DNA from: Clostridia bacterium
GTDB lineage: Bacteria; Bacillota; Clostridia; CAKSNL01; HGM11501
Reading direction: 5' to 3'
Assembly: GCA_045588365.1 (NCBI GenBank)
Contig: JAZNEB010000024.1
Location: 114,854 to 178,853, forward strand
Length of the DNA stretch: 64,000 nt
Within the stretch, counting starts at the first letter, position 1. Each line of letters opens with the position of its first letter. A program made the translations under genes and the position numbers. Positions 17,044 through 60,312 of this stretch are shown here, piece after piece. The notes under the pieces are model-generated. The model had not been told where the DNA came from and did no database searches. It worked only from the letters and a program-made list of their open reading frames with translations.

Positions 17044-17096
17044 AAAAATCCCCTTTTATTTCACTTCTTTGAGTGCAGAAATTACGGAATCTTTTA

Positions 17097-33200: not shown

Positions 33201-34717
33201 TAATCCGTTCCGCCCATTGCTACTTTTGCTTCAGCTTCTTCCAAAAGTGCAACATAATTTGTAGCAGTATCTCCGTCTTCTTCATATCCGCCGGAAAGGG
33301 CGAGCTTCTGAACACCCGAAAGCTCATCATAAGCCTCTCTTGCAGCTTCAACTAAGCCCTTGTTTGTTTCAAAAGCATCGTCATCTTCAAAATCCAAATC
33401 TTCCAGTGCTTCAATCTTGGATATAACTGCAACAGCGGAAGCCTCTTCCTTATAAGAGGAAAGATTAGCCATATCAATTATATCATTGCCTCTGGGAGCC
33501 AGGAAACGGATTTCAGAATTTGCCTGATGTATACTACCTCTGTCTATAACAAGTCTTATGTATTTGGCGTTAACCATATCGTATGGGGTTTCGCCAAAGC
33601 TTACATAAAGGTCCTGTTTAAGAGTATTTTCCGCTGTAACAAGGTCAGCTCTTGCCCAGTTAGTGCCGTCTGCAGAAACCTCAAGGTAACCGCCGGAAAA
33701 TCTCTGATTTCCGCCGCCGTTTGACCAAGGTACATACTCTCCATCCACAACAGATGTTCTCTGATAAAGTCTGATACCGGAAAAGCTGAAAGGAACGTAA
33801 GATGTGATTGTGAAGGTAGCTGTGCAGCCTTCTTTCAAAGCTCCGTCCACTTTTTCAATGGCGTTCTGATAGCACATATATGTACCAAGATTATAGTCAG
33901 TAAGATTAGAGATAGCGCCTTCAATTACCGCATTAGCCGTTCTTTCTCCCTGTCTGGAAACTTCAATAGAATAGAAAGCAGGAGCAAAAGCCGGAACTTC
34001 TCCGGCACCTACGCCCTTGCCTGCGAAATCTGTATAATTCTCAGAAGGTTTCAATATATCAAGACCTGCAAATGCAGTAAAGCCAACACCGGGATTTCTT
34101 CCGCCCGAACCGTCAGCAACATGTGCAACAACTATTTTAAGTCCTTTAACGGTAGCATCGGCACCTTCTGCAAAGTAAACGTTTTTACGAACATTTGCAG
34201 CGTTGTCTCCGTCCTTTTCATAGTCTCCGACATCTCCAGAGAAAAGGATTTTTTCCCCGTCTTCATAAATACCTTTAACTATAATAAAGCGGGGAGCTCC
34301 ACCCAGATTATTTCTGGGCCAGATACCAATACCGCCAACTTCAATTCCTCCGTCGGTAAATTTTTCTTCATTAAACATAACCGTAATGGTCTTCTTAGCC
34401 AAAGCCGCTTCGGTAACTCCTGCAGCATCGGTCGTTGAATGCCATATGGTTGTGTAATTATCACTGTCAAAGAGGTTTGAAGCGCTTCCCTGAGCAACAC
34501 TTCCCACTTCACAGCTTTCTATGTAAGTTGCATAGTCATAGTAATCTGCTTCGGAAGCAAAAAGTTCTGCTTCTTCCTCCTCATCTTCAAATTCCTCTGC
34601 CTCAATAACTTCGGGTTCAAGTTCTGCCTCTTCCCCGAATATGGGCATGGTTGTAAAACCTGTGCATAAAGATACTAACATACACAAGCTTAAAACAACA
34701 GATAAGATTTTCTTCAT
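24287..34717 (-). CDS. Giant (3476 aa) SLH-anchored surface protein with multiple F5/8 type C (discoidin)-like domains, Ig-like repeats, two Listeria-Bacteroides-type repeats and three C-terminal SLH domains
   Basis: Signal peptide MKKILSVVLSLCMLVSLCTGFTTMPIFG. Recurring ...TITVMFNEE...GG(V/I)RLY.R... discoidin-like units; ...YEFVGWYLDAAYTV... (Flg_new-like); C terminus has three SLH-like repeats (AISNMYVDYIVNGKSETAFDPDSDITRAEF..., FADVNVGDWFANAVAWAVNQGI..., FADKAEISTYANYQVNWAADKGVISGY...). Confidence 0.85.
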   Translation of the reverse strand: MKKILSVVLSLCMLVSLCTGFTTMPIFGEEAELEPEVIEAEEFEDEEEEAELFASEADYYDYATYIESCEVGSVAQGSASNLFDSDNYTTIWHSTTDAAGVTEAALAKKTITVMFNEEKFTDGGIEVGGIGIWPRNNLGGAPRFIIVKGIYEDGEKILFSGDVGDYEKDGDNAANVRKNVYFAEGADATVKGLKIVVAHVADGSGGRNPGVGFTAFAGLDILKPSENYTDFAGKGVGAGEVPAFAPAFYSIEVSRQGERTANAVIEGAISNLTDYNLGTYMCYQNAIEKVDGALKEGCTATFTITSYVPFSFSGIRLYQRTSVVDGEYVPWSNGGGNQRFSGGYLEVSADGTNWARADLVTAENTLKQDLYVSFGETPYDMVNAKYIRLVIDRGSIHQANSEIRFLAPRGNDIIDMANLSSYKEEASAVAVISKIEALEDLDFEDDDAFETNKGLVEAAREAYDELSGVQKLALSGGYEEDGDTATNYVALLEEAEAKVAMGGTDYYKADKYIDLENSAYGSALASSYNISQLFDGVIESSAFNLYGWQSASGTDDAGRTITVMFNDDFIDGEKTVAGVRLYPRQNGTGTPGYFDVVGIYDDGNGGTKKLPLSRHHVTFTLNASGYDLDGKSIYFDDPLEDLVGIDLVFQGENPATNPSFVALMEIEILKPKAVELRPSAEITYPLTFADGDFSMPPVTVTIGSDAENAENPVQWPSKYLYDNLMGYTGASPGHFEYLYCVNTAANEKAWIEFDLGREITFSGLRVYNRRENATTVYASGMQGLTHGYLLLSSDGENWYSTDGFAAASKTALYQDVPTKFGKEAKNIKARYVKLVATKLYGGEAGNWTVSEIRLLDPIANEAALTPAQTAGLSDFYDPSVYIDMANTKVGSTTHDGETAEPVESNVKTWTPRLFDGVTLGNLYTNGWHGNHQTTATGQGLLDAKTVTIMFNEEIPVGGVRLYHRPDASHGSSPMDVRLIGIYKTADGTEERHIIDGRILYTKYDVQGSEGYDRQPKSIYLEEAEELVGIKVVTLATQNGGTKYTCIMEIEVLKPRDKEDWPSEELSHNFIGGDFNPLAKGDIDLPAKETLESALTLGSTNGTATASSLNKLIYAFDNAYGKISGQFVEIANAVAANKQGTADATTAWIEIDLGEEKTFSGVRVYGRISGDGTKLFENNGGHQNMTKGYIYVSEDGETWLKSDMFSGARINLSQDMMAVYGGTQYNLKARYLKVEATEIAENNPNYVQNVWAFSEIRLIDPIDDEDVVTKTAAQIANLPRITNEGNVQIDVSVPEDVIIDDITLTVDATEVTKVEVDEEELTLNTDYTLVDKKIVLSEEFALSLEKGSHEVVITFGTGEVLSASIDVIDFSQVEFKFTYRSGTSLTRAENITLNNVKGLTATKVTLLEDNTVEIPFTADEETITITRSNFRKAFDVYKEMGKDGGQIKVKVEFEGGVSMIYTINMTGHWFTKADFQEITLMSDASLKAYDDDEIDVTELDNFAVRADSVWNNAWKNHPMSSFFYPRAAEGVTGYNYHAETTEGKLHYIDVDFGETVTVGGLRYQARLESGNYTPDWKKVIIYGSTNFETWTKLYEGAANNGQRINEFGFSDNASVRYVRIYIEGVNAHVTANSLSFLKPTSRVTNELRFEAGATEIADDVVINYVTYPSGKTLSKIELEGEEISSEDYFIGEYGTVTIKKESLVGMNIGDYELKLYFNDIADPVTATLKVANSLMTEFKFSYLSGTSVRRTEEIVLNNVKGLNVTKVTLFEDETVEIPFTANTSNITITRTAFRQAFDVYAAMGLEEGAHKVVVTFEDDTTLTYTITISGDWVTAADLTGVLTVNATFDTDEINILDYENFAIRPDSVWNNAVSNHPAGAFFQEEISEEAAGQRYHASTDEGRNHYLDVDFGENVTVGGVRYIARIATNGTTGLPFLDPNWSQIVISGSTDFETWETLYEGSATSERINDLWFDGNTEVRYLRIYIGNTGYPTANAIRILKPSSRILGTLEFEKGAPELQEDVVVNYITYPSGKAISKVEFNGEEISNTRYLVEADKITIDQEYFLEFEVGTYPLKVYFAGGEVSETTLKVNDCTETEFKFSYYNGTSVARTEKLELKNIKGLSVTKVVLKSDGTVIPFTANEETITIGRSDFRKAFDVYKALGLETGKLQLLVKFEDNSYLTYSVILSGYWATKANALSTDATFASDEIDIITEYPDFAVRPDSVWNNAGANHPVNAFFRSTLAELTGGYRYHGETNEGNNHYLDIDFGATAEIGGLRYYARYEGGKYQPNWSKVEIFGSDDFETWEKLYDGKATGSARTTDLSFSKNAEVRYLRIYISNTQYATAASIRFLAPSLRIYNEFGGVMTSVTLEKANANEEVVVYTDLPVTGVKVGGATVSSSNYTFDAETMKLTIKKGALSAIKTAGVATTIEVFGGEMSAVLNVSFGEKLFSDEVLPYNFANTIKYVSGYSNGGGVGNLIDRGVVRRTADGKIMTNSDDDKKLKSSGFTVESAAAEIYSDSTTGAYPVIEIDYQIPHTFSGVRVYHRVWVSGGNRQFGQTMNKAYLQVSNDGVNWLTSDTWKATLDKGSNKNSYDDIKFMINGEEVNVTARYLRLCIVTTSNPTSIMEICLYKPGSGRSLNPAEITFEGERALFSETDPRDVSFGVVYNDAVALSAIRVVAEGEVITTVDPSYINTQGETIVITKDFFLDNGSSVLPEEFDFVMSFVMGDDVSVPAGYVEEEIHSVTFGSQDANVTVIAKRVDKETGEVIGEVSVSPFDAKRHEDTVFVATIIEDGYEAVWEIEENIQTTYEEKPLLFDDTWTLTTNGFRNSGRDYGIHRAFDNNNTTDVWSDTAGHGGSYDSVNNDLDITAIFGRRVTLSSMSWQHRIHLTSPNAYAAGQGVREYKLYAIVDSVIADTPFKTGTLLANETLQAITFDPIELDGLYIWMKRGNSNFSVADINLIERVATEKNVAVKGEVTRKGTKTEEFKIADLYADAVVKVSTVAVAPGEVKVTTDLVGLSTTADTPTTATKGETLEVTLVAHEGEELPNEITEITQDGHVLVCGLDFSYVKTTVPGEVSLMSLNPGDEIGVITIFNARGDIHIIADAEGVTRRKVTYVDEHGAKGTVPASKFYMEGDEITIASSSLKLTGYTFKGWNWTGEVVAEGEEYTLYSAGDPFVMPDEDVTFVAVWELKQSGGQPQRPQGGGGDSSDDDKPESFGGGGFGGVSDKFQVVISGVGTQAVTKGTVLSAPAVEAGYEFVGWYLDAAYTVPYANTGVTGSLTVYPYVRKVRQATDLADIQNHWAKEAISNMYVDYIVNGKSETAFDPDSDITRAEFCQILYKISGQTSDGSENFADVNVGDWFANAVAWAVNQGITMGTTEDTFSPYAKITREQMATMIYRYATKVGAEWEISGEASFADKAEISTYANYQVNWAADKGVISGYPDGTFGAKKEATRAEAVVMLTRLMNLLGR
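27790..30790 (-). repeat. Three tandem internal repeats of about 1 kb (about 335 aa each) inside the giant gene
   Basis: The protein blocks (T/V)EFKFSY.SGTS..R(T/A)E.I.L(N/K)N(V/I)KGL..TKV.L..D.TV.IPFTA.....ITI.R..FR.AFDVY...G recur at about aa 1310, 1640 and 1975. The DNA copies are diverged by roughly 20-30%. Confidence 0.6.
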
Positions 34718-41414: not shown

Positions 41415-44400
41415 TTATTCATTTTTAAGATAACCGGTGAAAAATTCTGCGATTTCAGCTCTTGTTGCAAAAGCCTTAGGCATAAGATTTCCTTTGCTTC
41501 TTTCTTTTATAAATCCTTTGCCGACTGCCCAGTTCAGTGAAGAAATTGCATATTCAGAAATTTCAGAAGCATCATCAAAGTGGAGATTTTCCTCCATTGT
41601 AAGAGCGTTCATTCCTTTGTATACAGCATATCTTAACATAATTGCTGCAAGCTGTTCACGGGTAACATTTTTATCCGGTGCAAATTCGTTTTCCGTTACG
41701 CCGTTTACAATACCGTTCTGCTTTGCCCAGGATACTGCATTTCCGTAATACGCCCCCATATCCACATCGGAGAAGGGTATTGAACGATTTGTTGCAGGCT
41801 CTCCCTCTGCACGATAAAGAATTGTAACAAGCATTGCTCTTGTGAGGTTACCTTCCGGTTCAAATTCGTCATCCGATACTCCAACCATAAGATTATTGCT
41901 TACAACATATAAAACATAAGGGTAGAACTTATCTGTTTCCTTAACATCTTTGAATTCAATTTTTTCCACCTTATTCCATTTAGCAAAAAGTGTAAAGCTC
42001 TTTATCACCTTTGTATTAAAATCATAAGCTTTTTCCAGTAACTCATCGGTATACCAACCACCAAATTCAAATCCTTCTCTTACGGGAGCTTCAGGCTCTG
42101 CAATAGTTTCATTCATTTTCACAGATTTCTTTTCCACATTACTTCCGCCATTGGTTTCAAACTTCACAGTATAAACGACACTTCCTCCGCCACCGCCTGT
42201 GGCAACTCTCTTAGGTGCGTCTTTATCATTATATACAACTGCATAGGTTGAGAATTTATCCGTTTTGAAGGAGAAGCTGTTATCCCCCTTGTTGAAATTG
42301 CCTTCTATTACATCTGTAACAATATTTCCTGTTTCATCCTCGTGAATACGGATAATTCTGTAAGTTCTCTTTTTTGATTTATCCGTGTTTATAAGTTCTT
42401 CGGGAATCTCAATCGTGATAGTTATTTTGCCCGAAGTCTCCGTAATCTGTGTTTCTGCTACTTCATTATCTGAAACAACTTCCTTGAACAGTTCAATATT
42501 AAGATACATACCGATTTCCGTTGTTTCATCAAGCCCGTTTTCTTCCTCTCCGATTACAGCTTCCGCCACTTCCTTATCAGTTGCAGAAACTTCATTGACC
42601 GGAATATCTGTAACATCAAGATAAACTCCTACTGTAGCATTTCCACTTGCAACAGATGCCTGTTCCTCTTCAGTAAGAACACTGTTAAACAATTCCACTC
42701 CGTTCTGAACTTTAAGTGTTGCATTTGCTCCATTGTTTTCTGCTTTTGTTGTATTTGTAACAGCCTCTTCAACACTCTGTTCTACTATAAGAGTATCGTA
42801 TGCACCGCATTTGCAGGTTCTTTTAAAGTTACCTTCTCTGTCTTCTTTCCAGTCCCCAAAGCTATGAGCTTTTACAACTTCTTCAGAACATACAGAGCAT
42901 TTTCCGCTGTGCGTTCCATCCTTATTATCAGCCCAGGAATTCACCTTGTGCTCAGCCTTTTCTGCTGCCGTACAGGTTTCGCCGTTTTCACAATAGCGTA
43001 TATGGCCGCTTTCGCCGCCTGTTTCCCAAGCTCCAAAGCGATGTTTGTGCTTAAGCATGGGAATTGCTTCATCCATGCTGTGACTGCATACAAGGCAGGT
43101 ATAGGTAATTACGCCTTCTTCGGTTTCTGTTGCTTCCTTTGTTATTTCGCCGTCATTCCACATATGGTTCTGACGCTGATATGCCGTGCATCCGTTTTCG
43201 TTTATGCAAACGTGTGTATGTGTTTCATCATCATCGGCAATCCATTTACCAAAGCTGTGGTCGCACACAATTTTTGAAATAACCTCGGATTTTTCAAATC
43301 CACAATCAACGCAGGCATATTTCTTAATACCGGTTTCTGTTACTGTTGCCTCTTTTACTGTCTCGCCTTCATCTAAAGCATGCTCCCTGGTGCGTTCTCC
43401 TTTGCAAACAGAACAGGTCTTTTTATGAGCAGTGCCTCCTTCTGAAGTCCACTTGCTCCATTCATGGTTTTCTGTTTCAGATATACCGCAGCCTTCACGC
43501 TTACAGCTATGCGAATGTACATCTGCCACCGCATTAACGCCGGTATCTTCCCATTCATCCCAGTCGTGGTCTAAAGCAGGAAGTATTACATCTTCCTCAT
43601 TAAGCTTGCTGTTTCCTTCTATATCACTAAATTTGCCATTACATCCTTCGCAGCAGTAATAGGAAATGTTTCCGTCTTCGGTACAGGTAGCAGCTTTTCC
43701 GGGGGTATTCGTCATTTTATGCTTATGTTCAAGAACCGGTATTTCACGTTCATCAATATGGCTATTGTCATTCTGACATATGCGCTGTTCCGTACCTTCC
43801 GTTGTTTCTGTGGGAGCGACAACTACTTCCCAGTCACTCCATTTATGACCGAGGGCAGGACGTGTTGTATAATTTTCATAGCCGCATACATCGCAGGATA
43901 TGTAATTCTGTCCCTCATCATCGCAGGTCTCGGCCTGAACTACTTCGCTTTTAATGTTATGCGTTTCCGTTTCGGAGAAATCGCAGCCCTCGTTAAGGCA
44001 AAAATGTATATGCTCATCTGCATCTTTGCTTTCCCACTTGCCTAAATTATGATTATCAGGCTCAGATGCCACACTTTCTTCCTTGTTTTCCGGACAATGC
44101 TGGCAGGTGTAGAGTATGGATCCTTCTTTTACGCAAGTAGGCTCTGTTATGCTCTTTCCATTGTCCCATTCGTGTTCTTCTGTGCGTGTTCCCTCACAAA
44201 CAGAGCAGGTCTTTTTGTGATTTTCTTTTCCGTCTGTATCCCACTTTCCAAAGTCGTGGGTGTCTTCTTCCGTTTCACCGCATTCCTTTACAAGACAGAT
44301 TCGGCTGTGCTTATCTTCACCGACATCTTCCCACTTGCTCCATTCGTGCTCTGTAACTTTAATAGCTTCGGTATTTGTAGCGCCACATTCGCTTGTACAG

Positions 44401-46688
44401 GTATATGTTGTTTCGCCTTCTTCATAGCAGGTAGGAGCTTTTGTTTCCGTTCCGTCATCCCAGGTGTGGTCTTCGGTTTTAGTTTTGCCGCATTCACAGC
44501 TTCCTGTATGGGTGCCGTCTTCGTTATCCTTCCAGTTTGTAAATTCGCAGGTGTGATTATCTACTGTAGGAACATCGTAACGGTAGAGGCTTATGGCATA
44601 CTGGTTATCATTGGTGGGTGTGGTATCAGTTTCGGAATCCCAACCCTCAGAACCTACCAGAGCCCAGTCTTCACCGCAGATAAAGTAATATTCGGTATCG
44701 CCATCTTCGTTGACGTACTCACGGAAACGAAGTGTAAACATGGCTCCGCCTATAGCGTAGTAGTTGGCAGGATACATAAGCAAGTCGCCTTCTGCTATGT
44801 TTTCATCTATGTTGCCTCGCGCTACCTGTTCGGCGTGGGTATAACCGTCCATATCGTCACGGTATGTGTCATCATCCACCTCTGTAGTGTAGAAATCGAT
44901 TGCCCACGCACCGCCGTCCCACATACCATACTCACCATTAACATAACGTGGAACACCCATATAGCCGGTATTATAAAGGCTATAACTCTGGAATGAATAA
45001 ACGCAATAGTTGGGAAGCAAAGGCATAACCGTAGTCAATCCCATCTCCGTAAAATTCCATTGTTCGGGATTTACGTCAAGCATAAATTCCGAAGGAACTG
45101 CATTTCCCACATAATTCTGATTGAGCAGTGAAATGCTTCCGTCCTCATACGGAACAACTTCAATGGCATTGATGTTTTCACCGCAATCAATAATTCCCTG
45201 TTCATTGGTTTCTCCCGAAGTTTCTTCATCAAGACCTCCCAAAGCAAAATACTTATCGCCGATTTTTGCAACAAAGATATACATATCTTCTTCGTTGATA
45301 TCATCAAGTGAAGTTATTTTTGTGTAAACGGGATTTTCGAGACCGCAGTTATCGCATTTTCCCGTATCTGTATTAAATGCGTGACCTGTAGCCGGAACCT
45401 TTGAAGCCATAGCTTCTTCCCAATACTCATTTTCTTTGCTCTCATCCATAAACATTCCGCAATCTTCACAAAGCCAATATGGGCCGGAACCCGGTTCAAA
45501 GCAAGAAGGTTCTATTACCTCACCTTCTATGTGTATTGCATTCGGATGCCATATCTCGCCGCAGTTGTCACAATAGTTATCATCGCCGTATTCATGACCT
45601 GGAGCATAAACGGTGAGATAATATTCATAATTGCTGTAACCTTCGGGAAGCACGATATACTCCGTTGCTTCGGCGTTGGCAAAATATATCTTACAATCCT
45701 CGCAGTACCAGTATTCAAGGTTTCCGTCCTCTGTGCAGGTTGCTTCAACTGCCGCATTATGTATCATATCCGGGTGCTCACAACGTTCCATATACAGCAT
45801 AATGTTATGGGCACGGTTGTCAATAGCGTCACCGTTTTCATCCTCGGACCAGGAAAGTACCGCGGAAAATTTCGGCTGAGCACCACTGTCATCAAACAGT
45901 ATCAGTGGGCTGTTAAGTGCCCATCCGAAAAGATATCCCTTGTCAGCTGCGTAATCACTCAGTTCCGTACTCTGTTCAAAACGGATGGACTGGGGAAAAA
46001 CGTCATAAGAGGTATCTACGTCGCAGAGATTCTCTCCGTGAACCACGATTTTTCCGTCCAAAACCGTCATATATCCATTATCGGGCGAAAGGATATATGT
46101 ATCCGAAAGTTCTTTATAGGTGAAAAACTCTACTGTATCAGAATCTACCGTAACAGAACCGTCTTCTTCAACAAATTCGGAAAGGTCTATTGCCACACGT
46201 GAACCGTCTTCATTTGTTTCGTTGCCCATTGCGTAGAGCTTTCCGTTATACTCTCCCACAAACAGGAATTTAAAACCGTCCAGATATGGGGTTAATGTGT
46301 GCATACCGCTATTTGCATAGTCATCCTCGTCATAATAAGGATGCTCGGAAGGCACAAAAAGTTCAAAATTCTCTTCAGTTTTACTGTACTCACAGCCCAC
46401 ACAATCATTGCTGTGTACTCCGGGGGTGATAACAACATCTGCCGGTGAAATTTCCTCAGTCATCCCCTCGTCAGAGTAACATTTATCGCAGGTATAATAA
46501 CTGCAGTACCAGAACTCGATATTCCCCGGCGTGGTGCAGTTGCCCATAGTAGCCTCGATATGGGTAACACTGCCGCTGTGCGATGCATGAGCATTTTCTT
46601 CCGCAAGTGCAACCGCCGGCATCAAGCCCGCAATCATAATTATAGCCATAACTACGCCCATCAGTTTCCTGAATTTTCTTATTTTCAT
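41415..46688 (-). CDS. Giant (1757 aa) secreted Cys/His-rich repeat protein with a Listeria-Bacteroides repeat and three C-terminal SLH domains
   Basis: Signal peptide MKIRKFRKLMGVVMAIIMIAGLMPAVALA. About 20 reiterated modules of about 30 aa of the form H.W......H...C...C / E.TC...G...Y.C..C; ...EGFEFGGWYTDELLEKAYDFNTKV... (Flg_new-like). C terminus has three SLH repeats (FKDVKETDKFYPYVLYVVSNNLMVGV..., FSDVDMGAYYGNAVSWAKQNGIVNGV..., FDDASEISEYAISSLNWAVGKGFIKE...). Confidence 0.8.
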   Translation of the reverse strand: MKIRKFRKLMGVVMAIIMIAGLMPAVALAEENAHASHSGSVTHIEATMGNCTTPGNIEFWYCSYYTCDKCYSDEGMTEEISPADVVITPGVHSNDCVGCEYSKTEENFELFVPSEHPYYDEDDYANSGMHTLTPYLDGFKFLFVGEYNGKLYAMGNETNEDGSRVAIDLSEFVEEDGSVTVDSDTVEFFTYKELSDTYILSPDNGYMTVLDGKIVVHGENLCDVDTSYDVFPQSIRFEQSTELSDYAADKGYLFGWALNSPLILFDDSGAQPKFSAVLSWSEDENGDAIDNRAHNIMLYMERCEHPDMIHNAAVEATCTEDGNLEYWYCEDCKIYFANAEATEYIVLPEGYSNYEYYLTVYAPGHEYGDDNYCDNCGEIWHPNAIHIEGEVIEPSCFEPGSGPYWLCEDCGMFMDESKENEYWEEAMASKVPATGHAFNTDTGKCDNCGLENPVYTKITSLDDINEEDMYIFVAKIGDKYFALGGLDEETSGETNEQGIIDCGENINAIEVVPYEDGSISLLNQNYVGNAVPSEFMLDVNPEQWNFTEMGLTTVMPLLPNYCVYSFQSYSLYNTGYMGVPRYVNGEYGMWDGGAWAIDFYTTEVDDDTYRDDMDGYTHAEQVARGNIDENIAEGDLLMYPANYYAIGGAMFTLRFREYVNEDGDTEYYFICGEDWALVGSEGWDSETDTTPTNDNQYAISLYRYDVPTVDNHTCEFTNWKDNEDGTHTGSCECGKTKTEDHTWDDGTETKAPTCYEEGETTYTCTSECGATNTEAIKVTEHEWSKWEDVGEDKHSRICLVKECGETEEDTHDFGKWDTDGKENHKKTCSVCEGTRTEEHEWDNGKSITEPTCVKEGSILYTCQHCPENKEESVASEPDNHNLGKWESKDADEHIHFCLNEGCDFSETETHNIKSEVVQAETCDDEGQNYISCDVCGYENYTTRPALGHKWSDWEVVVAPTETTEGTEQRICQNDNSHIDEREIPVLEHKHKMTNTPGKAATCTEDGNISYYCCEGCNGKFSDIEGNSKLNEEDVILPALDHDWDEWEDTGVNAVADVHSHSCKREGCGISETENHEWSKWTSEGGTAHKKTCSVCKGERTREHALDEGETVKEATVTETGIKKYACVDCGFEKSEVISKIVCDHSFGKWIADDDETHTHVCINENGCTAYQRQNHMWNDGEITKEATETEEGVITYTCLVCSHSMDEAIPMLKHKHRFGAWETGGESGHIRYCENGETCTAAEKAEHKVNSWADNKDGTHSGKCSVCSEEVVKAHSFGDWKEDREGNFKRTCKCGAYDTLIVEQSVEEAVTNTTKAENNGANATLKVQNGVELFNSVLTEEEQASVASGNATVGVYLDVTDIPVNEVSATDKEVAEAVIGEEENGLDETTEIGMYLNIELFKEVVSDNEVAETQITETSGKITITIEIPEELINTDKSKKRTYRIIRIHEDETGNIVTDVIEGNFNKGDNSFSFKTDKFSTYAVVYNDKDAPKRVATGGGGGSVVYTVKFETNGGSNVEKKSVKMNETIAEPEAPVREGFEFGGWYTDELLEKAYDFNTKVIKSFTLFAKWNKVEKIEFKDVKETDKFYPYVLYVVSNNLMVGVSDDEFEPEGNLTRAMLVTILYRAEGEPATNRSIPFSDVDMGAYYGNAVSWAKQNGIVNGVTENEFAPDKNVTREQLAAIMLRYAVYKGMNALTMEENLHFDDASEISEYAISSLNWAVGKGFIKERSKGNLMPKAFATRAEIAEFFTGYLKNE

Positions 46689-53931: not shown

Positions 53932-54897
53932 TCATTTTTTATCCATGTATCTAAGCTGCTGCGCTTTTGTGTTTCTCTCCCAGAAAACACCGTCTGAATA
54001 ACCCTGAATAGTTTTATCTTTATCTGCCATTTCAAGCCTTTTTTCACATATGGCGGCGTAGTCTTCGTTTTTCTCTATTCCAATAAAATGTCTTTTAAGT
54101 TTTTTTGCCACAACCGATGTGGTTCCCGAGCCTAAAAAGGGGTCAAAAATCACATCCCCCTCATTTGAGCTTGCCAAGATGAGCTTTGCAAGAAGCTTTT
54201 CGGGCTTTTGAGTGGGATGGGGCGTGTTTTCCGCCATGGACCAGTAGGGAACGGATAAATCGTCCCAGAAATTGGACGGATAGGTGTTTCTGAAATTTCC
54301 GTCTTTTGTTTCTTCCCAGTCCTTGGGTGCTCCGTCTTTTTTGTAAGGTGCCATTACCCTTCTTCTAATTTTTACGTCATCAACGTTGAAAGTATAATCC
54401 TTGCCAAAAGTAGCAAACCATATATCTTCCATGCCGTTTTTCCAGTTGCCTTTGGCCCCTCTGCCCTTTTCCCTTTGCCAGGTAATGCGGTTTTTTATGT
54501 GAAAATATTTTTTTAATACATTTCCTATTATCATGCCTGACTCCCAGTCGCAGCAAACATAAAGGGAGGCGTTTTTCTTTAAAAGAGGGAGTACTTTTTT
54601 AATCCAATTTTCGGTGTATTCTTCATATTCCTCTTCGGTGGTTTTCTTAAATTTATTTCCCCCGAAGTTTTTTTCCATATTATAAGGAGGATCTACAATA
54701 AGCAGGTCCACAAAAGCTTTTGGAAGAAAATCCATTATCTTTAAGGTGTCGCCCAACAGAGTTTTATCTAAAACTTCAGGTAAGGAAATCTCTTTTTCTA
54801 TTTTTAAGCACCGCGCAAGATAAAGCTTTTTTTCTTCTTCCATAAGCCTTATGGTCTTATTTCTCTCTGTCAAAGCTCCCACCTCCCCAAAGTACAA
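53932..54897 (-). CDS. Solitary DNA methyltransferase (N6-adenine/N4-cytosine, beta class)
   Basis: Motif IV LLIVDPPYN precedes motif I VIFDPFLGSGTTSVVA: the beta-class order typical of the N6_N4_Mtase family. No adjacent restriction endonuclease candidate. Confidence 0.8.
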   Translation of the reverse strand: MYFGEVGALTERNKTIRLMEEEKKLYLARCLKIEKEISLPEVLDKTLLGDTLKIMDFLPKAFVDLLIVDPPYNMEKNFGGNKFKKTTEEEYEEYTENWIKKVLPLLKKNASLYVCCDWESGMIIGNVLKKYFHIKNRITWQREKGRGAKGNWKNGMEDIWFATFGKDYTFNVDDVKIRRRVMAPYKKDGAPKDWEETKDGNFRNTYPSNFWDDLSVPYWSMAENTPHPTQKPEKLLAKLILASSNEGDVIFDPFLGSGTTSVVAKKLKRHFIGIEKNEDYAAICEKRLEMADKDKTIQGYSDGVFWERNTKAQQLRYMDKK

Positions 54898-54943
54898 TTA
54901 CTTATCATATATTGTACTTTAGGTTAAAAGAAAAGTCAAGAAA

Positions 54944-54970
54944 AAAAGCACCGCCAAGGGCGGTGCTTTT
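54944..54970. terminator. Palindromic terminator AAAGCACCGCC-AAG-GGCGGTGCTTTT (copy 2 of 3)
   Basis: Same 8-bp stem as 22437 and 60281; lies between the MTase and toxin/immunity cassette 2. Confidence 0.6.
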
Positions 54971-55079
54971 CAGGGGCAAATTACTTAAAAAGCAGTTTTA
55001 TACTAAGAAACTTATAATCTTCCGATCAAAAATGACTGTAACAAAAAGCGGGCGTCGCCTTTTGTCTGCCGTCACCACT

Positions 55080-55646
55080 TTACTTCTTCCTGATTTCATA
55101 GTCGAAGCTGATCATTCTTACGCCGAAAAGCTCTTCTGCTTTGTCGTTATGTATAATTTGGCTTTGACTATGTCCGTAATCATCTATATAAGAAACATCT
55201 ACACCATTCGGGTCATGGGGTGGATTATCTCCCCAACCGATATCCATATAAAAATTCGCATTTCCGGCATAGTAATAGATTCGAGTGGCATTATGCCCAA
55301 AAAGATCTGTAGTCTCTACGTCGGAAAGATCAAGTAAATTGAAGGAAAGATGCGCATCTGCGTCTTCTTTTGTTTCCTTACTTGGGATGTATATTTTATA
55401 TACCTTTTCAATTCCTGGCGCTGAATAAAATGTGAACTTATGGCGGTCAAACTCACAAACAGCAGTATCGGAAATGGTGATGACCTCTCCGTTTAGTGAA
55501 TACTTTAATGTAAAGTCTATTTCCTTTTTTCTTTCCGGAATAAATTCTTTAACCAAAGATATTACAGGCATACTAAAACAAAGAAAAATGAAAGCATATA
55601 AAACTGCGCCAATAGCAAAAACGGCAATGAGTAAAGTTTTTTTCAT
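55080..55646 (-). CDS. Small N-terminally anchored protein, candidate immunity protein (tandem paralog 1)
   Basis: 188 aa, MKKTLLIAVFAIGAVLYAFIFLCFSMPVISLVKEF...AEELFGVRMISFDYEIRKK. The first 60 aa are identical to the neighbouring paralog; the central region diverges. Confidence 0.6.
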   Translation of the reverse strand: MKKTLLIAVFAIGAVLYAFIFLCFSMPVISLVKEFIPERKKEIDFTLKYSLNGEVITISDTAVCEFDRHKFTFYSAPGIEKVYKIYIPSKETKEDADAHLSFNLLDLSDVETTDLFGHNATRIYYYAGNANFYMDIGWGDNPPHDPNGVDVSYIDDYGHSQSQIIHNDKAEELFGVRMISFDYEIRKK

Positions 55647-55663
55647 AAAAATCCCCTTTTATT

Positions 55664-56236
55664 TTACTTCTTCCTGATTTCATAGTCGAAACTAATCATT
55701 CTTACGCCGAAAAGCTCTTCTGCCTCGTCTGCAGTAAAGCTACCATAAACAATCTTTCCGTCCTTTTTGTAAGCAAATTCAACCCAGTCATCGCTGATAC
55801 TTTGGGGGGGAACGGGATGTTGCCCGGATTCATTCATATAGAAATTTCCATTTCCACCATAGAAATAAAGCTCCAGTATCTCTTTTCCAAATTTTTCATA
55901 TGTGTTCTCTTTCCGTAAATCAAGTAAAGTTATAAACAAAGCTTCATTGTCCATATCGGGCTTTTCCTTGCCCGGGATGTATATTTTATATACCTTTTCA
56001 ATTCCTGGCGCTGAATAAAATGTGAACTTATGGCGGTCAAACTCACAAACAGCAGTATCGGAAATGGTGATGACCTCTCCGTTTAGTGAATACTTTAAGG
56101 TGAAATCTATTTCTTTTTTTCTTTCCGGAATAAATTCTTTAACCAAAGATATTACAGGCATACTAAAACAAAGAAAAATGAAAGCATATAAAACTGCGCT
56201 AATAGCAAAAACGGCAATGAGTAAAGTTTTTTTCAT
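55664..56236 (-). CDS. Small N-terminally anchored protein, candidate immunity protein (tandem paralog 2)
   Basis: 190 aa. Same N- and C-terminal blocks; immediately downstream of the GHSKGG hydrolase gene through the conserved junction AAGTAAAATAAAAGGGGATTTTTATG. Confidence 0.6.
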   Translation of the reverse strand: MKKTLLIAVFAISAVLYAFIFLCFSMPVISLVKEFIPERKKEIDFTLKYSLNGEVITISDTAVCEFDRHKFTFYSAPGIEKVYKIYIPGKEKPDMDNEALFITLLDLRKENTYEKFGKEILELYFYGGNGNFYMNESGQHPVPPQSISDDWVEFAYKKDGKIVYGSFTADEAEELFGVRMISFDYEIRKK

Positions 56237-56248
56237 AAAAATCCCCTT

Positions 56249-57601
56249 TTATTTTACTTCTTTGAGTGCACCAATGGCGGACTCGATTTTGTGATTTTTA
56301 TATCCCCCGTACAAAATAGCTGCAACTTTTAATACGTCTATTAAGTTTGAAGGTGTTTTCGGAATGAATTTAAGTAAATGTGCCCATTCATTCTGATCCG
56401 GCAGGAAAGTTACATCAACATTTTCATTTACATACTTTTGGACATCGTGTAAAATCTCATTTTCCACTATGTAAGCTTTAATATTACCGGTATAATTTTC
56501 AGACGAAACTCCGTAGTCTTCTAAGTTTGCCCAGGCGGGATTGAAAACCACGGCATCGCAATTTGTAGCAGTTGCTGCGGCAATTGCCTCGGCACCACCC
56601 TTTGAGTGTCCCACAAAGGTTACCTTTTTATCCCCGGCATAATTTTTGAAAATCTTTGCATAAGCGATGGCTTCTTTCATATCTCTGGAATCGGGTCCTG
56701 AAACCTGTTCGAAATTGTTTTCCCAATCAATCCACTCTTTACTTCCCTCGTAAGCAACTATATATTCTGATGGGTCATAAGGATTGTCGTCTTTCTTAAT
56801 ATATACTCCCAGTTTTAACCCCTCTCTGCCACGGAAACAATGAAGCAATTCCCAGATGGATACTTCTTTATCGTCGTCACTTGAATTTTCATCATTATTA
56901 TATATATGCTGTGCAATTTCTGCGGCATCAAGATCAAAATCGGATATTTCATCCACCTTTGTGCTGAGATTTTTTAGGGGGACTTTGCCGGAAGGTAAAT
57001 CAAGCGCTACTGTTTCGTAGACAGGAGGCTTAAATAAATTAAATTCCTCATCTGCGTAATTAAATTCAGCTTGTTCTTCTTCGGTAAAACTTGTTTCGTT
57101 TTCTGATGGATAAGGGAACTTTACTTCTTTTGGGAAAGAATTATATAAGGCATCTTCATATATGCTTTGAGAAAAGTTTTCCGAAGAAGGCTCTTTCGCC
57201 TCATTATCTTTCTCTCTTTTTTTATCACTTATAGCTTTCCAGGTTTTATCACCTACAACACCATCGGGAAAAAGGCCGTTATCCTCCTGAAACTTTATAA
57301 CAGAATTAAATGTGTTTATGCCGTAAATGCCATCTTCCTCTAGCTTTTCACCTCTGCCGTCGGTATAGCCCATAGAATTAAGTTCCTTTTGTAATTCCTT
57401 TATGGTATAAGGTGAGCCGGAATGTACCGAAAGCTCTGATCCCTTTTCCTTTAAGCTTTCAAAATCTTCCTCATTTTCTGCGAAAGCATCCTCGGTTACC
57501 GCATTTTCCTTAATGCGGGCAGGGGAAGTTTCAAAGGCCTTGTCTATAGTGGCAAAAGCTCCGTGTTTTCGCGGATTATTAACATTATCACTGGCTTCCA
57601 C
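56249..57601 (-). CDS. PG_binding_1-domain protein with C-terminal alpha/beta-hydrolase (lipase/esterase-like, GHSKGG) domain; 5'-truncated relative to its paralog and lacking an ATG start
   Basis: One PG-binding repeat (LQKELNSMGYTDGRGEKLEEDGIYGINTFNSVIKFQEDNGLFPDGVVGDKTW). C terminus ...YIVAYEGSKEWIDWENNF...KVTFVGHSKGGAEAIAAA... (nucleophile elbow GxSxG). The reading frame stays open upstream to a stop at about 57656 with only a GTG at 57601. Confidence 0.6.
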   Translation of the reverse strand: MEASDNVNNPRKHGAFATIDKAFETSPARIKENAVTEDAFAENEEDFESLKEKGSELSVHSGSPYTIKELQKELNSMGYTDGRGEKLEEDGIYGINTFNSVIKFQEDNGLFPDGVVGDKTWKAISDKKREKDNEAKEPSSENFSQSIYEDALYNSFPKEVKFPYPSENETSFTEEEQAEFNYADEEFNLFKPPVYETVALDLPSGKVPLKNLSTKVDEISDFDLDAAEIAQHIYNNDENSSDDDKEVSIWELLHCFRGREGLKLGVYIKKDDNPYDPSEYIVAYEGSKEWIDWENNFEQVSGPDSRDMKEAIAYAKIFKNYAGDKKVTFVGHSKGGAEAIAAATATNCDAVVFNPAWANLEDYGVSSENYTGNIKAYIVENEILHDVQKYVNENVDVTFLPDQNEWAHLLKFIPKTPSNLIDVLKVAAILYGGYKNHKIESAIGALKEVK

Positions 57602-57644
57602 ATCATTTTGCGGAGAGACTGCTCCGCTGTCTGTGTTGGAGAGG

Positions 57645-58403
57645 TTAGTTATACTTTATAACACAAGCTATACCGTAGCAAATGACAGTTGATACTATTT
57701 TAATTAAACCTATATTCAAGTCATCTCCTATAGGTATAAACCAGATAAGCTGCGCTACTAATAGGATAAATCCCTTATACAGGATATCCCCTTTAGCTGC
57801 GAAGCGATAGCTTACAATCGCGGTATATATGGGTTCTGCTACCATCCAAAAGAGAAAAGCAACCACTGCCACAGTACTGTATTTTGTAAATATCAGTAAT
57901 AAATCGACGAGATAGAAGCATCCTGAAGGAACAAAGCACAAAAGAAACCATTTAACACCGTTTTTGTGACGGAAAGATATGTACTTTATGAAGCAAGCAA
58001 TTGCAAAGCAAAGGGTGATTCCTATTATCTGATAAATACCTGCGGTAAGCTCCATTTCTGCTATCATAGGCCAGTCATTAATACTGTTTCTAAAATAAGG
58101 AATGAACCATAATATTTGAGGAGAAATCAAAGCAAGATACATAAATATAGCACTTTTCTTATTTATGAAATAATAACTCACTCCTGCAAGATATAATGGA
58201 TTTACCATAAACAAATAAAAACTGAACAAAAATAAATTCTGCAATTCATCAGAATCAGATAATTCCAAATACAGCTGAAAAACAGCCACAGGTAACAGGC
58301 AGAGTAAAATCCATATAGCCGCTTTTACAACAATTTTCAAAAATTTCATAAAAATCACTCCATGTCTAAGCTTTAAGTAAATTTTATTGATAATGCCTTC
58401 CAA
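57645..58403 (-). CDS. Polytopic membrane protein (about 7 TM), candidate immunity or export/holin-like partner
   Basis: 252 aa, hydrophobic helices throughout, Trp/Tyr/Phe-rich; sandwiched between the two PG-binding genes. Confidence 0.5.
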   Translation of the reverse strand: MEGIINKIYLKLRHGVIFMKFLKIVVKAAIWILLCLLPVAVFQLYLELSDSDELQNLFLFSFYLFMVNPLYLAGVSYYFINKKSAIFMYLALISPQILWFIPYFRNSINDWPMIAEMELTAGIYQIIGITLCFAIACFIKYISFRHKNGVKWFLLCFVPSGCFYLVDLLLIFTKYSTVAVVAFLFWMVAEPIYTAIVSYRFAAKGDILYKGFILLVAQLIWFIPIGDDLNIGLIKIVSTVICYGIACVIKYN

Positions 58404-58417
58404 AATTGTTCCTTAAA

Positions 58418-60136
58418 TTACTTCTCTATTTCCGTTTTAAAAGTTAAATTCGGCGCATGCTTTTTCGCTATATTTACGCCCCCTATGTTAAGTATAGATA
58501 GTGCCACATGCTCACAATTTTGCTCCAACAAGTTGTATTGAAAATTTTCTGCTATGGTTATGGCCACAGCCTGTTCAAACATTGCCTTGCCAAGTGCCGG
58601 TTTAATTGAATATTGAGAACTGTTTTCATACTGTTCTGATATGTATTTACCAGATGTTGACACTCCATAACTCTTTTTGTTTTCAAGAAAATACTGAGTT
58701 TCGTACTTTCCCAAAACACTTATTCTCATTTCTGAGTCAGAATCTTTTAATTTATCCTGATCTTGAGGATAAAAGCTAAATAAAACTCCTTCTCCACTTT
58801 CGTTGACCAGCAAAACTCCAGCATGTCCCATTCCACTGGCCCCATCTGAATCATTTAAATAGTATGCTGTCGTAATTGATGTATCATCGAAATTTCTCAA
58901 ATCTGTTATAGCATAGTTTGCAGTATATTCCGCTACCTTATCACCATTTCCAATTGCTATCTCGCGAACCTCTGTCAATTCTTCCATCAAAGCTTCTTTT
59001 GCAGGGGTATTATTAAAATCCTGTTCCTTGCGATAATCTGTATTTATAATATTTCTTTGATCCGGATTGTTAATAAAGTTACGCACTTCCTCCTCGTCAA
59101 ATCCATATTTACCTACAAAAGTATCAACCATTGTTGTAGCTGCCTCTTTAATTTTTTCTTCAGCCTTGTCTTTTATCCATTCTTTCGCATCTTCAGCTTT
59201 TCCTTTTACCCATTCTTCTGCCTCTTCAACTTTTCCTTTGGCGTATCCAAGTACACAATCAAAATCCAAATCTGCTACATTTCCATAGTACAGCTCTGCT
59301 TGGTCTGGTATTTCTGCTTTTTCTTCCGGCAAAAAGGAAATCTCAGCATTTGCCCCGTCATAGCTTTTCTTTCTTCTCACTTTTTCAGCCGTTATACCCG
59401 AAGTTTTTTTCCGTTTATCACTTATAGCTTTCCAGGTTTTATCACCTACAACACCATCGGGAAAAAGGCCGTTATCCTCCTGAAACTTTATGACGGCATT
59501 GAATGTGTTTTTGCCGTAAATGCCATCTTCCTCTAGCTTTTCACCTCTGCCGTCGGTATAGCCCATAGAATTAAGTTCCTTTTGTAATTCCTTTATGGTA
59601 TAAGGTGAGCCGGAATGTACCGAAAGCACAGAACCCTTTTCCTTCAGGCTTTCAAAATCTTCCTCATTTTCTGCGAAAGCATCCTCGGTTACCGCATTTT
59701 CCTTAATGCGGGCAGGGGAAGTTTCAAAGGCCTTGTCTATAGTGGCAAAAGCTCCGTGTTCCCTTGGATTATTAACATTATCCCGGGCTTCCACATCATT
59801 TTGCGGAGAGACTGCTCCGCTGTCTGTGTTGGAGAGGTTAGTATAATTTTCCTCTTCTTCCTTTTTCTTTTTATCCACCATAGATTTCCAGGTTTTGTCG
59901 CCCACAACACCGTCGGGAAAAAGTCCGTTGTCCTCTTGGTATTTTATGACAGCATTAAATGTGTTTTTGCCGAAATCTCCGTCCTCTGAAAGCTTCCTTC
60001 CCCAGGCGTCAGTATAACCCCACTCATTTAAGCTTTTTTGCATTTCGCGTATAGCGATTGGGTCTCCTGTATGGACAGATAGCGTGCTACCCTCATCTTT
60101 TAAGTCTTCAAATTCAATTTCGTTGTTTTTATTCAT
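58418..60136 (-). CDS. Tandem PG_binding_1-domain protein with C-terminal permuted papain-fold LRAT/NlpC-P60-like domain (His...NCEH); candidate toxin or lysin
   Basis: 572 aa, no signal peptide. Two peptidoglycan-binding repeats (aa about 20-85 and 170-235), a Lys/Glu-rich coiled linker, and C terminus TAYYLNDSDGASGMGHAGVLLVNESGEGVLFSF...YNLLEQNCEHVALSILNIGG. The NCEH with an upstream catalytic His is the hallmark order of LRAT-type permuted NlpC/P60 enzymes. Confidence 0.65.
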   Translation of the reverse strand: MNKNNEIEFEDLKDEGSTLSVHTGDPIAIREMQKSLNEWGYTDAWGRKLSEDGDFGKNTFNAVIKYQEDNGLFPDGVVGDKTWKSMVDKKKKEEEENYTNLSNTDSGAVSPQNDVEARDNVNNPREHGAFATIDKAFETSPARIKENAVTEDAFAENEEDFESLKEKGSVLSVHSGSPYTIKELQKELNSMGYTDGRGEKLEEDGIYGKNTFNAVIKFQEDNGLFPDGVVGDKTWKAISDKRKKTSGITAEKVRRKKSYDGANAEISFLPEEKAEIPDQAELYYGNVADLDFDCVLGYAKGKVEEAEEWVKGKAEDAKEWIKDKAEEKIKEAATTMVDTFVGKYGFDEEEVRNFINNPDQRNIINTDYRKEQDFNNTPAKEALMEELTEVREIAIGNGDKVAEYTANYAITDLRNFDDTSITTAYYLNDSDGASGMGHAGVLLVNESGEGVLFSFYPQDQDKLKDSDSEMRISVLGKYETQYFLENKKSYGVSTSGKYISEQYENSSQYSIKPALGKAMFEQAVAITIAENFQYNLLEQNCEHVALSILNIGGVNIAKKHAPNLTFKTEIEK

Positions 60137-60280
60137 TTTATCATCCTTTCGTTAATTTTGCAAGTGTATTTACTCGAGTAACCCTGCATATAATATTATA
60201 ACACATTTAACTTGATATGTCAATACTTATTTTGCTTCTAAAGTTATTTATAACCTTTGGAGCGGCTTTTAAAGCACATA

Positions 60281-60312
60281 AAAAAGCACCGCCTTTGGCG
60301 GTGCTTTTTTAC
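60281..60312. terminator. Palindromic terminator AAAAAAGCACCGCC-TTT-GGCGGTGCTTTTTT (copy 3 of 3)
   Basis: Between cassette 2 and the AKR gene; same stem as 22437 and 54944. Confidence 0.6.

Follow-up and report, generated by a model that had tools for sequence, protein, structure and literature searches.

The tandem type VII secretion system (T7SS) immunity paralogues, esaG and tipC, evolve by recombination between homology blocks (Garrett et al., 2022, PMC9484751), and in Vibrio cholerae's type VI secretion system (T6SS) the sequential displacement of effectors leaves arrays of orphan immunity genes (Kirchberger et al., 2017, PMC5361080). Among lipase effectors, Tle of Enterobacter cloacae and its immunity protein Tli make up the proposed Tle6 group (PDB 7UBZ/9CYS; PMC11470151), and DUF2974/Mbeg1-like domains (PF11187) occur in Rhs effectors of the Bacteroides T6SS and in X-Tfe effectors of the Xanthomonas type IV secretion system (PMC11854122; PMC6536674). 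Here we describe two loci, cassette 1 and cassette 2, in a 64,000-nt stretch of contig JAZNEB010000024.1 (assembly GCA_045588365.1, positions 114,854 to 178,853; hereafter the window), in which genes for large proteins with an N-terminal peptidoglycan-binding domain and, in cassette 2, a C-terminal lipase domain with the motif GHSKGG are found together with small genes encoding proteins of 184–190 aa. The best explanation, to which we assign a probability of roughly three in four, is that an uncultured species of gut Clostridia has a polymorphic toxin-immunity system to which both loci belong, and that the loci carry the scars of module swapping. Each toxin would start with one or two peptidoglycan-binding domains and end in an exchangeable toxin domain, i.e., either an LRAT/NlpC-like domain followed by a multi-transmembrane (multi-TM) partner or the GHSKGG lipase followed by a protein of 184–190 aa. 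The small protein would be tethered by its N-terminal helix, with its all-beta domain lying outside the membrane, where this domain most likely binds and blocks the incoming lipase.

Comparable systems and their immunity genes

Polymorphic toxins in the sense of Zhang et al. (2012, PMC3482391) join a shared N-terminus to unrelated C-terminal toxin domains, and this arrangement is found in the window. In addition, the gene for the partner moves with the lipase under both PG_binding_1 and RHS scaffolds, and orphan C-terminal cassettes or remnants are present in the form of a 437-nt homology arm, three remnants and at least seven metagenome loci in which a truncated lipase ORF adjoins a partner gene. 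Neither a trafficking domain nor a linked secretion system was found with Pfam or among the neighbouring genes. The likeness to esaG and tipC lies in the non-identical tandem immunity genes downstream of a polymorphic toxin in Firmicutes, in the conserved 5′, central and 3′ blocks that surround variable segments and contain the mosaic breakpoints, and in the interspersed toxin gene fragments. On the other hand, the family described here is an unrelated one of membrane-anchored all-beta proteins that has no Pfam model (no Pfam or NCBIfam match to EsaG (DUF600) or TipC was found among 30 family members), only two copies stand in tandem, the toxin is a PG_binding_1 fusion and not an LXG/T7SS substrate (no LXG/WXG domain was found in the toxins with Pfam), and one joint lies in a 10-nt microhomology instead of a long homology block.

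As in the V. cholerae T6SS and in the orphan modules of Rhs and contact-dependent inhibition (CDI) systems, a new module replaces the effector and the old immunity gene is kept downstream, the orphans are nearly identical to the cognate genes of other strains, 3′ remnants of the effector are left, and a partial copy of the toxin carries a homology arm to the main gene. The setting is nevertheless different, as the loci are found in Gram-positive-type Clostridia without a T6SS, Rhs or CdiA scaffold at these positions, a small peptidoglycan-binding module makes up the constant region, and the arrays have little length. No T6SS gene (VgrG/PAAR/Hcp) was present among the scanned open reading frames (ORFs), and the host belongs to a lineage of Clostridia metagenome-assembled genomes (MAGs) with a T-box leader and SLH proteins. 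With E. cloacae Tle the lipase shares similarity over the nucleophile elbow and the acidic residue, so that a Ser-Glu-His triad can be mapped, and in both cases the immunity protein is extracytoplasmic, here by prediction. Tli, however, is an ankyrin-repeat lipoprotein whereas the partner here is a TM-anchored beta domain (no ankyrin match was found in the small proteins with Pfam), sequence identity is low, and Tle is delivered by a T6SS, to which no link was seen here. Finally, the lipase falls into the same Pfam family as the C-terminal domain of the DUF2974 antibacterial effectors, its metagenomic relatives are Rhs fusions, and PG_binding_1 is also part of X-Tfe architectures; the partner family, on the other hand, is not described in the reports on these effectors (PMC11854122; PMC6536674), and the PF11187 score of the window lipase is borderline (21.3 bits against a cut-off of 21.1 bits).

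The GHSKGG lipase and its small partner

All three large proteins of the cassettes start with one or two PG_binding_1 domains (50 bits in the lipase ORF, Pfam). These N-termini are 62–94% identical and are followed by a C-terminal domain that is either LRAT/NlpC-like or a lipase, and no hydrophobic segment or signal peptide was found in any of the three. A relative of the lipase at another locus (L006) reaches 29.0 bits against PF11187, and the window lipase itself matches the E. cloacae T6SS effector (PDB 7ubz_B) with E=2e-6 in phmmer over residues 287–392, an alignment that includes GHS(K/L)GG and VE(N/G)E(I/L)L. As the triad of E. cloacae Tle is Ser341/Glu393/His448 (PMC11470151), the probable triad of the window lipase is Ser333 (GHSKGG, nt 56594–56611), Glu382 (VENEIL) and His437 (KNH). 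The motif around Ser333 and His437 are invariant in 26 relatives, and Glu382 is invariant only in an alignment of three sequences. An AlphaFold2 (AF2) model of the lipase domain made from a three-sequence alignment had a pLDDT of 43, and the triad is consequently based on sequence alignment only. The LRAT/NlpC-like domains of the 572-aa and 356-aa toxins are related to each other (35% identity), give weak matches to LRAT and TseH, and contain GHAG…NC(E/S)(H/Q), which reads NCEH in the former and NCSQ in the latter; they may be phospholipase/acyltransferase or peptidoglycan amidase toxins. The order with a TM partner after an LRAT/NlpC-like toxin is repeated at two related loci, L001 (293 aa) and L012 (274 aa). 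The size of this partner is variable, i.e., 116 aa (17097–17447), 252 aa (57645–58403), 293 aa (L001 727–1608) and 274 aa (L012 2465–3289). The shortest of them, of 116 aa, corresponds to the C-terminal half of the 252-aa one (alignment with E=6e-5), and the family has no Pfam match.

The small proteins each have a single N-terminal hydrophobic helix, and the AF2 model of the immunity protein (pLDDT 90) places a TM helix at residues 2–34 ahead of an all-beta domain. Neither those of the window nor 30 diverse relatives had a sequence match in Pfam, NCBIfam or the PDB, and a Foldseek comparison of the model with the PDB gave nothing meaningful (best E=0.03, TM-score 0.25); a faint Foldseek match to staphylococcal Csa1A (DUF576) was dismissed as noise. 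Close relatives are extremely rare (6 in 5.8 billion proteins). Scanning 185,579 species genomes with the immunity alignment brought up a single locus, which belongs to a fecal Clostridia MAG, and the JGI metagenomes and IMG/VR gave no match. Word-indexed protein searches returned six immunity, two toxin and one N-terminal match, and the toxins of the window were themselves not among them. The family is visible only through exhaustive profile search and metagenome scan, and a profile search of 1.8 billion representatives yielded about 60 distant relatives of 170–210 aa.

The genomic neighbourhood of these relatives was compared in genomic or contig loci (coded L001–L012) and in metagenome loci (L042, L046, L050, L052, L055, and L072). 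At L003 and L004 the ends of intact GHSKGG toxins lie directly upstream of family members. At L006 two tandem paralogues, 44% identical to each other, come after a PG_binding_1-lipase toxin of 428 aa, and at L007/L008 a PG_binding_1-lipase toxin is followed by the family member P0011. In the metagenomes 72 loci with a lipase domain were found, of which 69 ORFs had enough downstream sequence, and in 43 of these a family ORF started within 200 nt downstream. Such partners had a hydrophobic N-terminus in 46 of 48 cases and a lipobox-like motif in 8. RHS-repeat proteins make up 7 of the 10 toxin ORFs scanned, including all of the long ones, and the alignment consensus has an Rhs DPxGL boundary immediately ahead of the lipase domain. 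A reading made earlier from the letters of the window alone (the sequence-only reading) had suggested that the 184–190-aa proteins are cognate to the lipase-type toxin, and a neighbourhood that is kept across distant lineages and different N-terminal scaffolds agrees with this. That they provide immunity to the GHSKGG lipase toxin is well supported by inference, because the partner accompanies the toxin domain on delivery scaffolds that are unrelated to one another and is exposed on the outer side of the membrane. The lipase is presumed to be toxic and would be neutralised by its cognate protein. The partner family was previously uncatalogued, and the scaffold that consists of PG_binding_1 only, with no visible export route, is also new.

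Several arrangements of these genes are found elsewhere. At L042 and L046 the array consists of toxin, immunity gene, truncated toxin and immunity gene, L052 has two full modules in tandem, and at L050, L055, and L072 two to three tandem immunity paralogues follow an Rhs-lipase. The genes for the distant members P0012 (L009 1–749) and P0014 (L011 1654–2295) stand alone without a lipase gene, the former with its own consensus promoter TTGACA-17-TATAAT, and may be free-standing orphan immunity genes.

In cassette 2 the lipase ORF and its mapped triad are intact. Because its frame is closed by a stop at 57658–57656, its sole start is a GTG at 57601 with no ATG available, and its ribosome-binding site (RBS) is poor (the closest GGAG is 20 nt 5′ of the GTG), the ORF looks like an orphan C-terminal module. 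A 437-nt direct repeat (Table 1), the homology of which starts precisely where the 252-aa gene has its stop codon, forms a homology arm by which the lipase module might become fused to the gene upstream; recombination between the two copies would delete 2.19 kb and place the lipase under the start of the 572-aa gene.

Junctions, displacement and mosaic genes for the probable immunity proteins

A 44-nt junction, AAAGAAGTRAAATAAAAGGGGATTTTTATGAAAAAARCTTTACT, is present three times in the window with 0, 1, and 0 mismatches, and no match was found in 100 shuffles of the sequence. The tandem immunity genes of cassette 2 share a 5′ block of 300 nt that is 97.3% identical (55373–55672 and 55963–56262) and a 3′ block of 67 nt that is 94% identical (55079–55145 and 55663–55729), and the central regions between the blocks have a DNA identity of about 30–55% and a saturated synonymous divergence (dS). 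Thus the threefold motif, the near-identical 5′ block of about 290 bp and the differing centres of the sequence-only reading are all confirmed. The same holds for a similarity that is not confined to the RBS region, as cassette 1 resembles cassette 2 over 17077–16853 against 56270–56037 (86%) and L001 over 17088–16495 (75%), beginning 34–45 nt 5′ of the ATG and spanning the whole gene. The middle copy of the motif, on the other hand, had been taken for a toxin end followed by an immunity start, and here the motif is present but the toxin end is not; the proximal immunity gene ends …EIRKK* at this position, with a stop 4 nt earlier and in another frame. On the toxin side of a complete junction His437 is found 13 codons ahead of the lipase stop, which means that this side encodes the last structural element of the enzyme.

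In cassette 1 the tail of the toxin is found without the toxin. The frame reads TGA (17106–17104), QLIKDSVISALKEVK, TAA (17058–17056), and no longer minus-strand ORF covers it. The stretch encoding ALKEVK had been interpreted as a toxin 3′ remnant lying outside any longer ORF, and this interpretation is sustained by the 15-codon frame, by the same tail on the intact toxins of L003 and L004, and by the longer remnants at L001 and L012. At L012 a PG_binding_1 N-terminus, an LRAT/NlpC-like C-terminal ORF and the 274-aa TM protein precede a decayed lipase remnant of about 80 codons, in which KNH has become KNY, the sequence diverges right after …GGTAAA, and no immunity gene follows. The remnants thus comprise about 13 codons in cassette 1, about 42 at L001 and about 80 at L012, from which it follows that the upstream breakpoints of displacement are scattered. 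At least seven metagenome loci have 5′-truncated lipase ORFs (71–157 aa) directly ahead of an ORF of the immunity family. At cassette 1, L001 and L012 an LRAT/NlpC-like cassette has thus apparently taken the place of the lipase domain and left 3′ remnants of differing length, with the old immunity gene kept in two of the three cases. The earlier proposal that immunity genes are retained after loss of the toxin is supported by the orphans that persist beside remnants in cassette 1 and at L001.

The loci L001/L002 and L004 derive from the same species and from the same site as cassette 2 (their methyltransferase/trehalase flank is 95–96% identical), and the immunity genes could be compared by sliding-window identity and by triplet tests (Fisher). 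The alignment of the small proteins, which the sequence-only reading had proposed as a check, located the variable region at codons ~91–172 and resolved the genes into reassorting modules, i.e., a TM region of type A or B, a middle of type 1 or 2, and a variable region of type alpha, beta or gamma. The combinations are A-1-gamma (proximal), A-1-alpha (distal) and A'-2-beta (cassette 1) in the window, and B-1-alpha (L001), A-2-alpha (L004) and B-1'-beta (L003) in the relatives. The L004 gene equals the proximal gene (100%) for about 200 nt, is next 92–95% identical to that of cassette 1, and from there on equals the distal/L001 allele (100%). Of the informative sites in the distal gene, 56 of the 61 lying 5′ of 55395 match the proximal gene and all 139 lying 3′ of 55383 match L001. 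Fisher p-values of the triplet-test breakpoints range from 1e-13 to 3e-44, and the breakpoints fall at about five conserved blocks (the junction with the start codon, KKEIDF, CEFD, IYIP, and AEELFG), which are under strong purifying selection with a ratio of nonsynonymous to synonymous substitution (dN/dS) of at most ~0.13. The toxin tails of L004 and L001 are identical and the 5′ modules of their immunity genes unrelated. These data show that homologous recombination in conserved blocks reshuffles immunity modules between strains. An immunity gene consists of some four exchangeable modules with strongly conserved blocks between them, the blocks being the junction with the start codon, KKEIDFTLKYS…CEFD, IYIP and AEELFGVRMISFDYEIRKK.

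Crossovers do take place at the junction, which is one of about five conserved blocks with breakpoints. Whether it deserves the special status of a recombination hotspot, as had been proposed, is another matter. It may simply be kept for what it contains, namely the code for the final lipase helix (near the catalytic His), a strong RBS and the Lys-rich beginning of the signal anchor, with crossovers no commoner there than in other places with 30–40 nt of identity, an alternative for which we see somewhat less than an even chance. The position of His437 so close to the stop and the conservation of the tail at the protein level in distant relatives fit this alternative, as do the breakpoints in four other conserved blocks and the displacement breakpoints at 13, 42 and 80 codons, which do not cluster at the junction in related genomes as the hotspot idea had led one to look for. 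Three independent joints nevertheless lie there, i.e., the L004/L001 switch, the joint between the two immunity genes, and the loss at L012 after …GGTAAA. Crossover at the junction therefore stands and its special status does not, and an ordinary junction modifies the explanation by module swapping and does not compete with it.

The history proposed here for cassette 2 starts from its middle joint. Native immunity genes end …AGGAAGAAGTAAAGTGG (distal gene, L001), the toxin gene ends …AAAGAAGTAAAATAAAAGGGG, and the proximal gene ends …AGGAAGAAGTAAAATAAAAGGGG, and comparison of these ends shows that the middle joint lies inside a shared 10-nt microhomology, AAGAAGTAAA, at 55663–55672. At L004 the end of a lipase with a Y-type tail (…GLFAKLDRKVHPWHSL…) is followed by one alpha-type gene. 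At L001 nt 1–51 of a chimeric toxin are the linker of the window lipase (100%), followed by an LRAT/NlpC-like domain of the cassette-1 type, the 293-aa TM protein, the Y-tail remnant of ~42 codons and an alpha gene. In cassette 2 a lipase with an X-type tail (…NEWAHLLKFIPKTPSNL…) is followed by the gamma gene and then the alpha gene. From ~55383 into the flank, the distal gene has an identity of ~99% with the single gene of L001/L002, L004 being at the same site, and the distal variable region is 99–100% identical to the alleles of L001/L002/L004 (99% to the cognate immunity protein of L004). Because the identity to L001/L002 extends into the flank and the variable region agrees at 99% with that of the L004 cognate, the distal gene is the resident allele, now an orphan, and the X-tail toxin and the gamma gene the probable newcomers. 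We propose that an X-tail lipase and its gamma gene overwrote a resident Y-tail lipase that had an alpha immunity gene, the incoming piece being joined by illegitimate recombination in AAGAAGTAAA, which is common to toxin ends and immunity-gene ends; through such a joint the old alpha gene would have stayed behind downstream as an orphan and the middle copy of the junction would have arisen. This order of events is what we infer, and two routes fit the joint, namely a homology-facilitated illegitimate insertion or an unequal crossover plus module swap.

A different history had been proposed from the sequence, in which one immunity gene was recently duplicated in tandem and the specificity-determining centre then diverged rapidly by point mutation. 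Although the 97% identity over the 5′ 300 nt, the 94% over the 3′ 67 nt and a joint as expected from unequal crossover at AAGAAGTAAA look like duplication, the centres have a DNA identity of only ~30–55% with saturated dS, the distal centre is 100% identical to the alleles of L001/L002/L004, where a single gene occupies the same site, and for the proximal variable region the nearest counterpart is the one of the distant relative L007 (40%). As the distal centre equals the alleles of other strains and the proximal one is nearest to L007, the divergence was imported and not accumulated in place. Neither are the copies fresh, since 8 differences in 300 nt exceed the ~1% between orthologous flanks of different strains. 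Recent duplication with divergence in place is thus improbable, and the claim has to be given up in favour of a resident distal allele; duplication followed by a module swap is possible.

Toxin tails may pair with particular variable regions. At L003 an intact Y-type lipase has an immunity protein beside it to which the variable region of the cassette-1 orphan is 77% identical, and the gamma region of the proximal gene is closest to that of P0011 (40%), whose toxin has an X-like tail (…NKYAYWAR…YGGI), a resemblance that would be consistent with such pairing among five pairs only. Over these five pairs the similarity of toxin tails correlated with that of variable regions (Pearson r=0.77), which is driven by one pair and suggestive only. 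The orphans would protect against the Y-tail lipases that sister strains still produce.

Table 1. Positions of features in the two cassettes, every one of which lies on the minus strand
Feature	Position	Remarks
Promoter-like site TTGACA-17-TGnTATAAT	60195–60223	12/12, sigma-70-like; 5′ of the cassette-2 operon
572-aa toxin	58418–60136	Two PG_binding_1 and an LRAT/NlpC-like C-terminal domain (GHAG…NCEH)
252-aa multi-TM protein	57645–58403	Putative immunity partner of the LRAT/NlpC-like domain
Direct repeat, 437 nt	57221–57657	95.9% identical to 59414–59849 inside the 572-aa gene
Lipase toxin ORF, 450 codons	56249–57601	PG_binding_1 and Mbeg1-like/Tle-like alpha/beta hydrolase; ends ...IGALKEVK*
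Proximal immunity gene, 190 aa	55664–56236	Unique gamma variable region; presumed partner of the neighbouring lipase
Distal immunity gene, 188 aa	55080–55646	Alpha type, orphan
Mosaic breakpoint in the distal gene	55383–55395	Triplet test
Junction copy 1	56220–56263	0 mismatches; toxin end KEVK*, RBS AAAGGGG, ATG and MKKTLL of the proximal immunity gene
Junction copy 2	55630–55673	1 mismatch (first base G); proximal gene end (…RKK*), toxin-type tail and RBS
Junction copy 3	17027–17070	0 mismatches; cassette 1
Cassette-1 toxin, 356 aa	17465–18535	PG_binding_1 and LRAT/NlpC-like C-terminal domain
116-aa TM protein	17097–17447	Related to the 252-aa TM protein but shorter
Lipase toxin 3′ remnant, QLIKDSVISALKEVK	17056–17103	15 codons, ends …SVISALKEVK; tail homology from ~17088
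Cassette-1 orphan immunity gene, 184 aa	16489–17043	Beta-like

The surroundings of the cassettes have features of their own. Cassette 2 is flanked by a terminator-like palindromic hairpin (AAAAAGCACCGCC-loop-GGCGGTGCTTTTT) in opposite orientations at 54941–54970 and 60279–60311, and L001 has a copy that matches 60282–60310 at 29 of 29 positions; the paired hairpins may be island boundaries or merely similar bidirectional terminators. A solitary N4/N6 DNA methyltransferase gene (53932–54897; PF01555, 158 bits) adjoins cassette 2 and is kept in L001/L002, and no restriction enzyme gene was seen beside it. In the L001 spacer between the gene for the 293-aa protein and the remnant (1620–1700), AACACAAGGGGACGGTTCTCC is found twice in tandem and is followed by an inverted copy, ACAGAACCGTCCC, so that a hairpin-forming repeat lies at the displacement boundary. 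Beside cassette 1 the last 25 nt of a tRNA-Arg(ACG) gene on the plus strand (16005–16081), with its flank, are repeated perfectly at 16267–16291, and a 29-nt element, TCTTAAGGATTCGAACCCTG[A/T]GAGGGCAT, is found at 16126–16154 and 16454–16482, the latter 6 nt from the stop of the orphan gene. Both repeats look like integration or excision scars at the tRNA. A tRNA-like motif just past the orphan gene, GGTTCGAATCC, proved not to be a tRNA but part of the 29-nt repeat. On the other side a T-box leader (18761–18974, 115 bits) upstream of pheS/pheT lies right beside cassette 1, which is thereby placed between a tRNA gene and a housekeeping operon. The window also has two very large ORFs, one of 3476 aa (24287–34717) and one of 1757 aa (41415–46688), the product of the latter being a cell-surface protein as judged from its SLH domains and Listeria-Bacteroides repeat.

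Weighing the reading and its meaning

Several points weigh against a polymorphic toxin-immunity system shaped by module swapping. First, no trafficking domain was recognised in the toxins, for which Pfam gives PG_binding_1 only, no secretion genes were found near the two loci, where the neighbours are metabolic or housekeeping genes, and the export of the toxins, and hence their interbacterial role, is assumed. Second, no family member was detectable downstream of 26 of the 69 metagenomic lipase ORFs. Third, the lipase ORF of the window has no convincing start, and the proximal gene may therefore guard a silent toxin. Fourth, the variable region gives no signal of positive selection (dN/dS 0.2–0.5), and the rank correlation between tails and variable regions over the five pairs is not significant (Spearman p=0.23). 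Fifth, the order of events at cassette 2 is indistinguishable from a tandem duplication that was then followed by a module swap.

The small protein could also be a lipase-specific helper, i.e., a foldase, activator or export partner like Lif of the Pseudomonas and Burkholderia lipases, and we consider this slightly less probable again than recent duplication. An N-terminal anchor and a position immediately downstream of the lipase would suit a helper, and the PDB gives weak matches to lipases of family I.2, which require Lif (E ~0.1–0.2). The fold of Lif is helical, however, while the immunity model is all-beta, and no similarity of the small protein to Lif was found in Pfam or PDB sequence searches. 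Furthermore, orphans persist where the lipase has been cut down to 13–42 codons, and mosaic alleles, tandem copies that differ from each other and a pairing with Rhs C-terminal domains are typical of immunity genes and have no foldase rationale. A dual role would have a precedent, as the Tle of E. cloacae needs its own immunity protein for activation (PMC11470151). The least probable alternative, and a very improbable one, is that the loci are decayed phage or autolysin lysis modules with a peptidoglycan-binding lytic enzyme, a holin-like membrane protein and the small proteins as lysis regulators: the best phage and PDB matches of the PG_binding_1 domain are phage endolysins and amidases, the enzymes have no signal peptide, as endolysins, and the multi-TM proteins come after the NlpC-like enzymes, but the lipase domain and small protein were not found in 50,697 phage genomes or IMG/VR, phage records match the peptidoglycan-binding domain only, both loci lie among housekeeping genes with no phage genes in the scanned part of the window, and the same lipase and partner pair is found on Rhs toxins.

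If the loci do belong to a polymorphic toxin-immunity system, it is tempting to speculate that toxins with a peptidoglycan-binding domain constitute a separate delivery class among the polymorphic toxins of gut Clostridia, exported by an undescribed route that possibly involves the multi-TM partner of variable size, and that the beta-domain protein is a new immunity fold for Tle-like lipases, common to Rhs toxins. This is suggested by the lack of a signal peptide, of an LXG, Rhs or CdiA scaffold and of nearby secretion genes, with a wall-binding module as the sole constant part, and should be regarded as a rather unlikely extension. Module swapping is an ordinary evolutionary process, seen here in a previously undescribed toxin-immunity pair. 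The conceptual advance is modest, since processes of this kind are well known from T6SS, T7SS, Rhs and CDI systems. The loci do, however, provide a small and readable case of how a toxin-immunity locus evolves, in which three strains at one site exhibit swapping, displacement and orphan retention, with one joint resolved to 10 nt, and the type of toxin tail that each orphan would neutralise becomes predictable. More generally, a likely function, that of immunity to an Mbeg1-like/Tle-related lipase, can be proposed for a family of membrane-anchored proteins of ~180–200 aa that is absent from Pfam, NCBIfam and the PDB and whose members are met repeatedly beside Rhs and peptidoglycan-binding toxins in metagenomes of gut and termite type.

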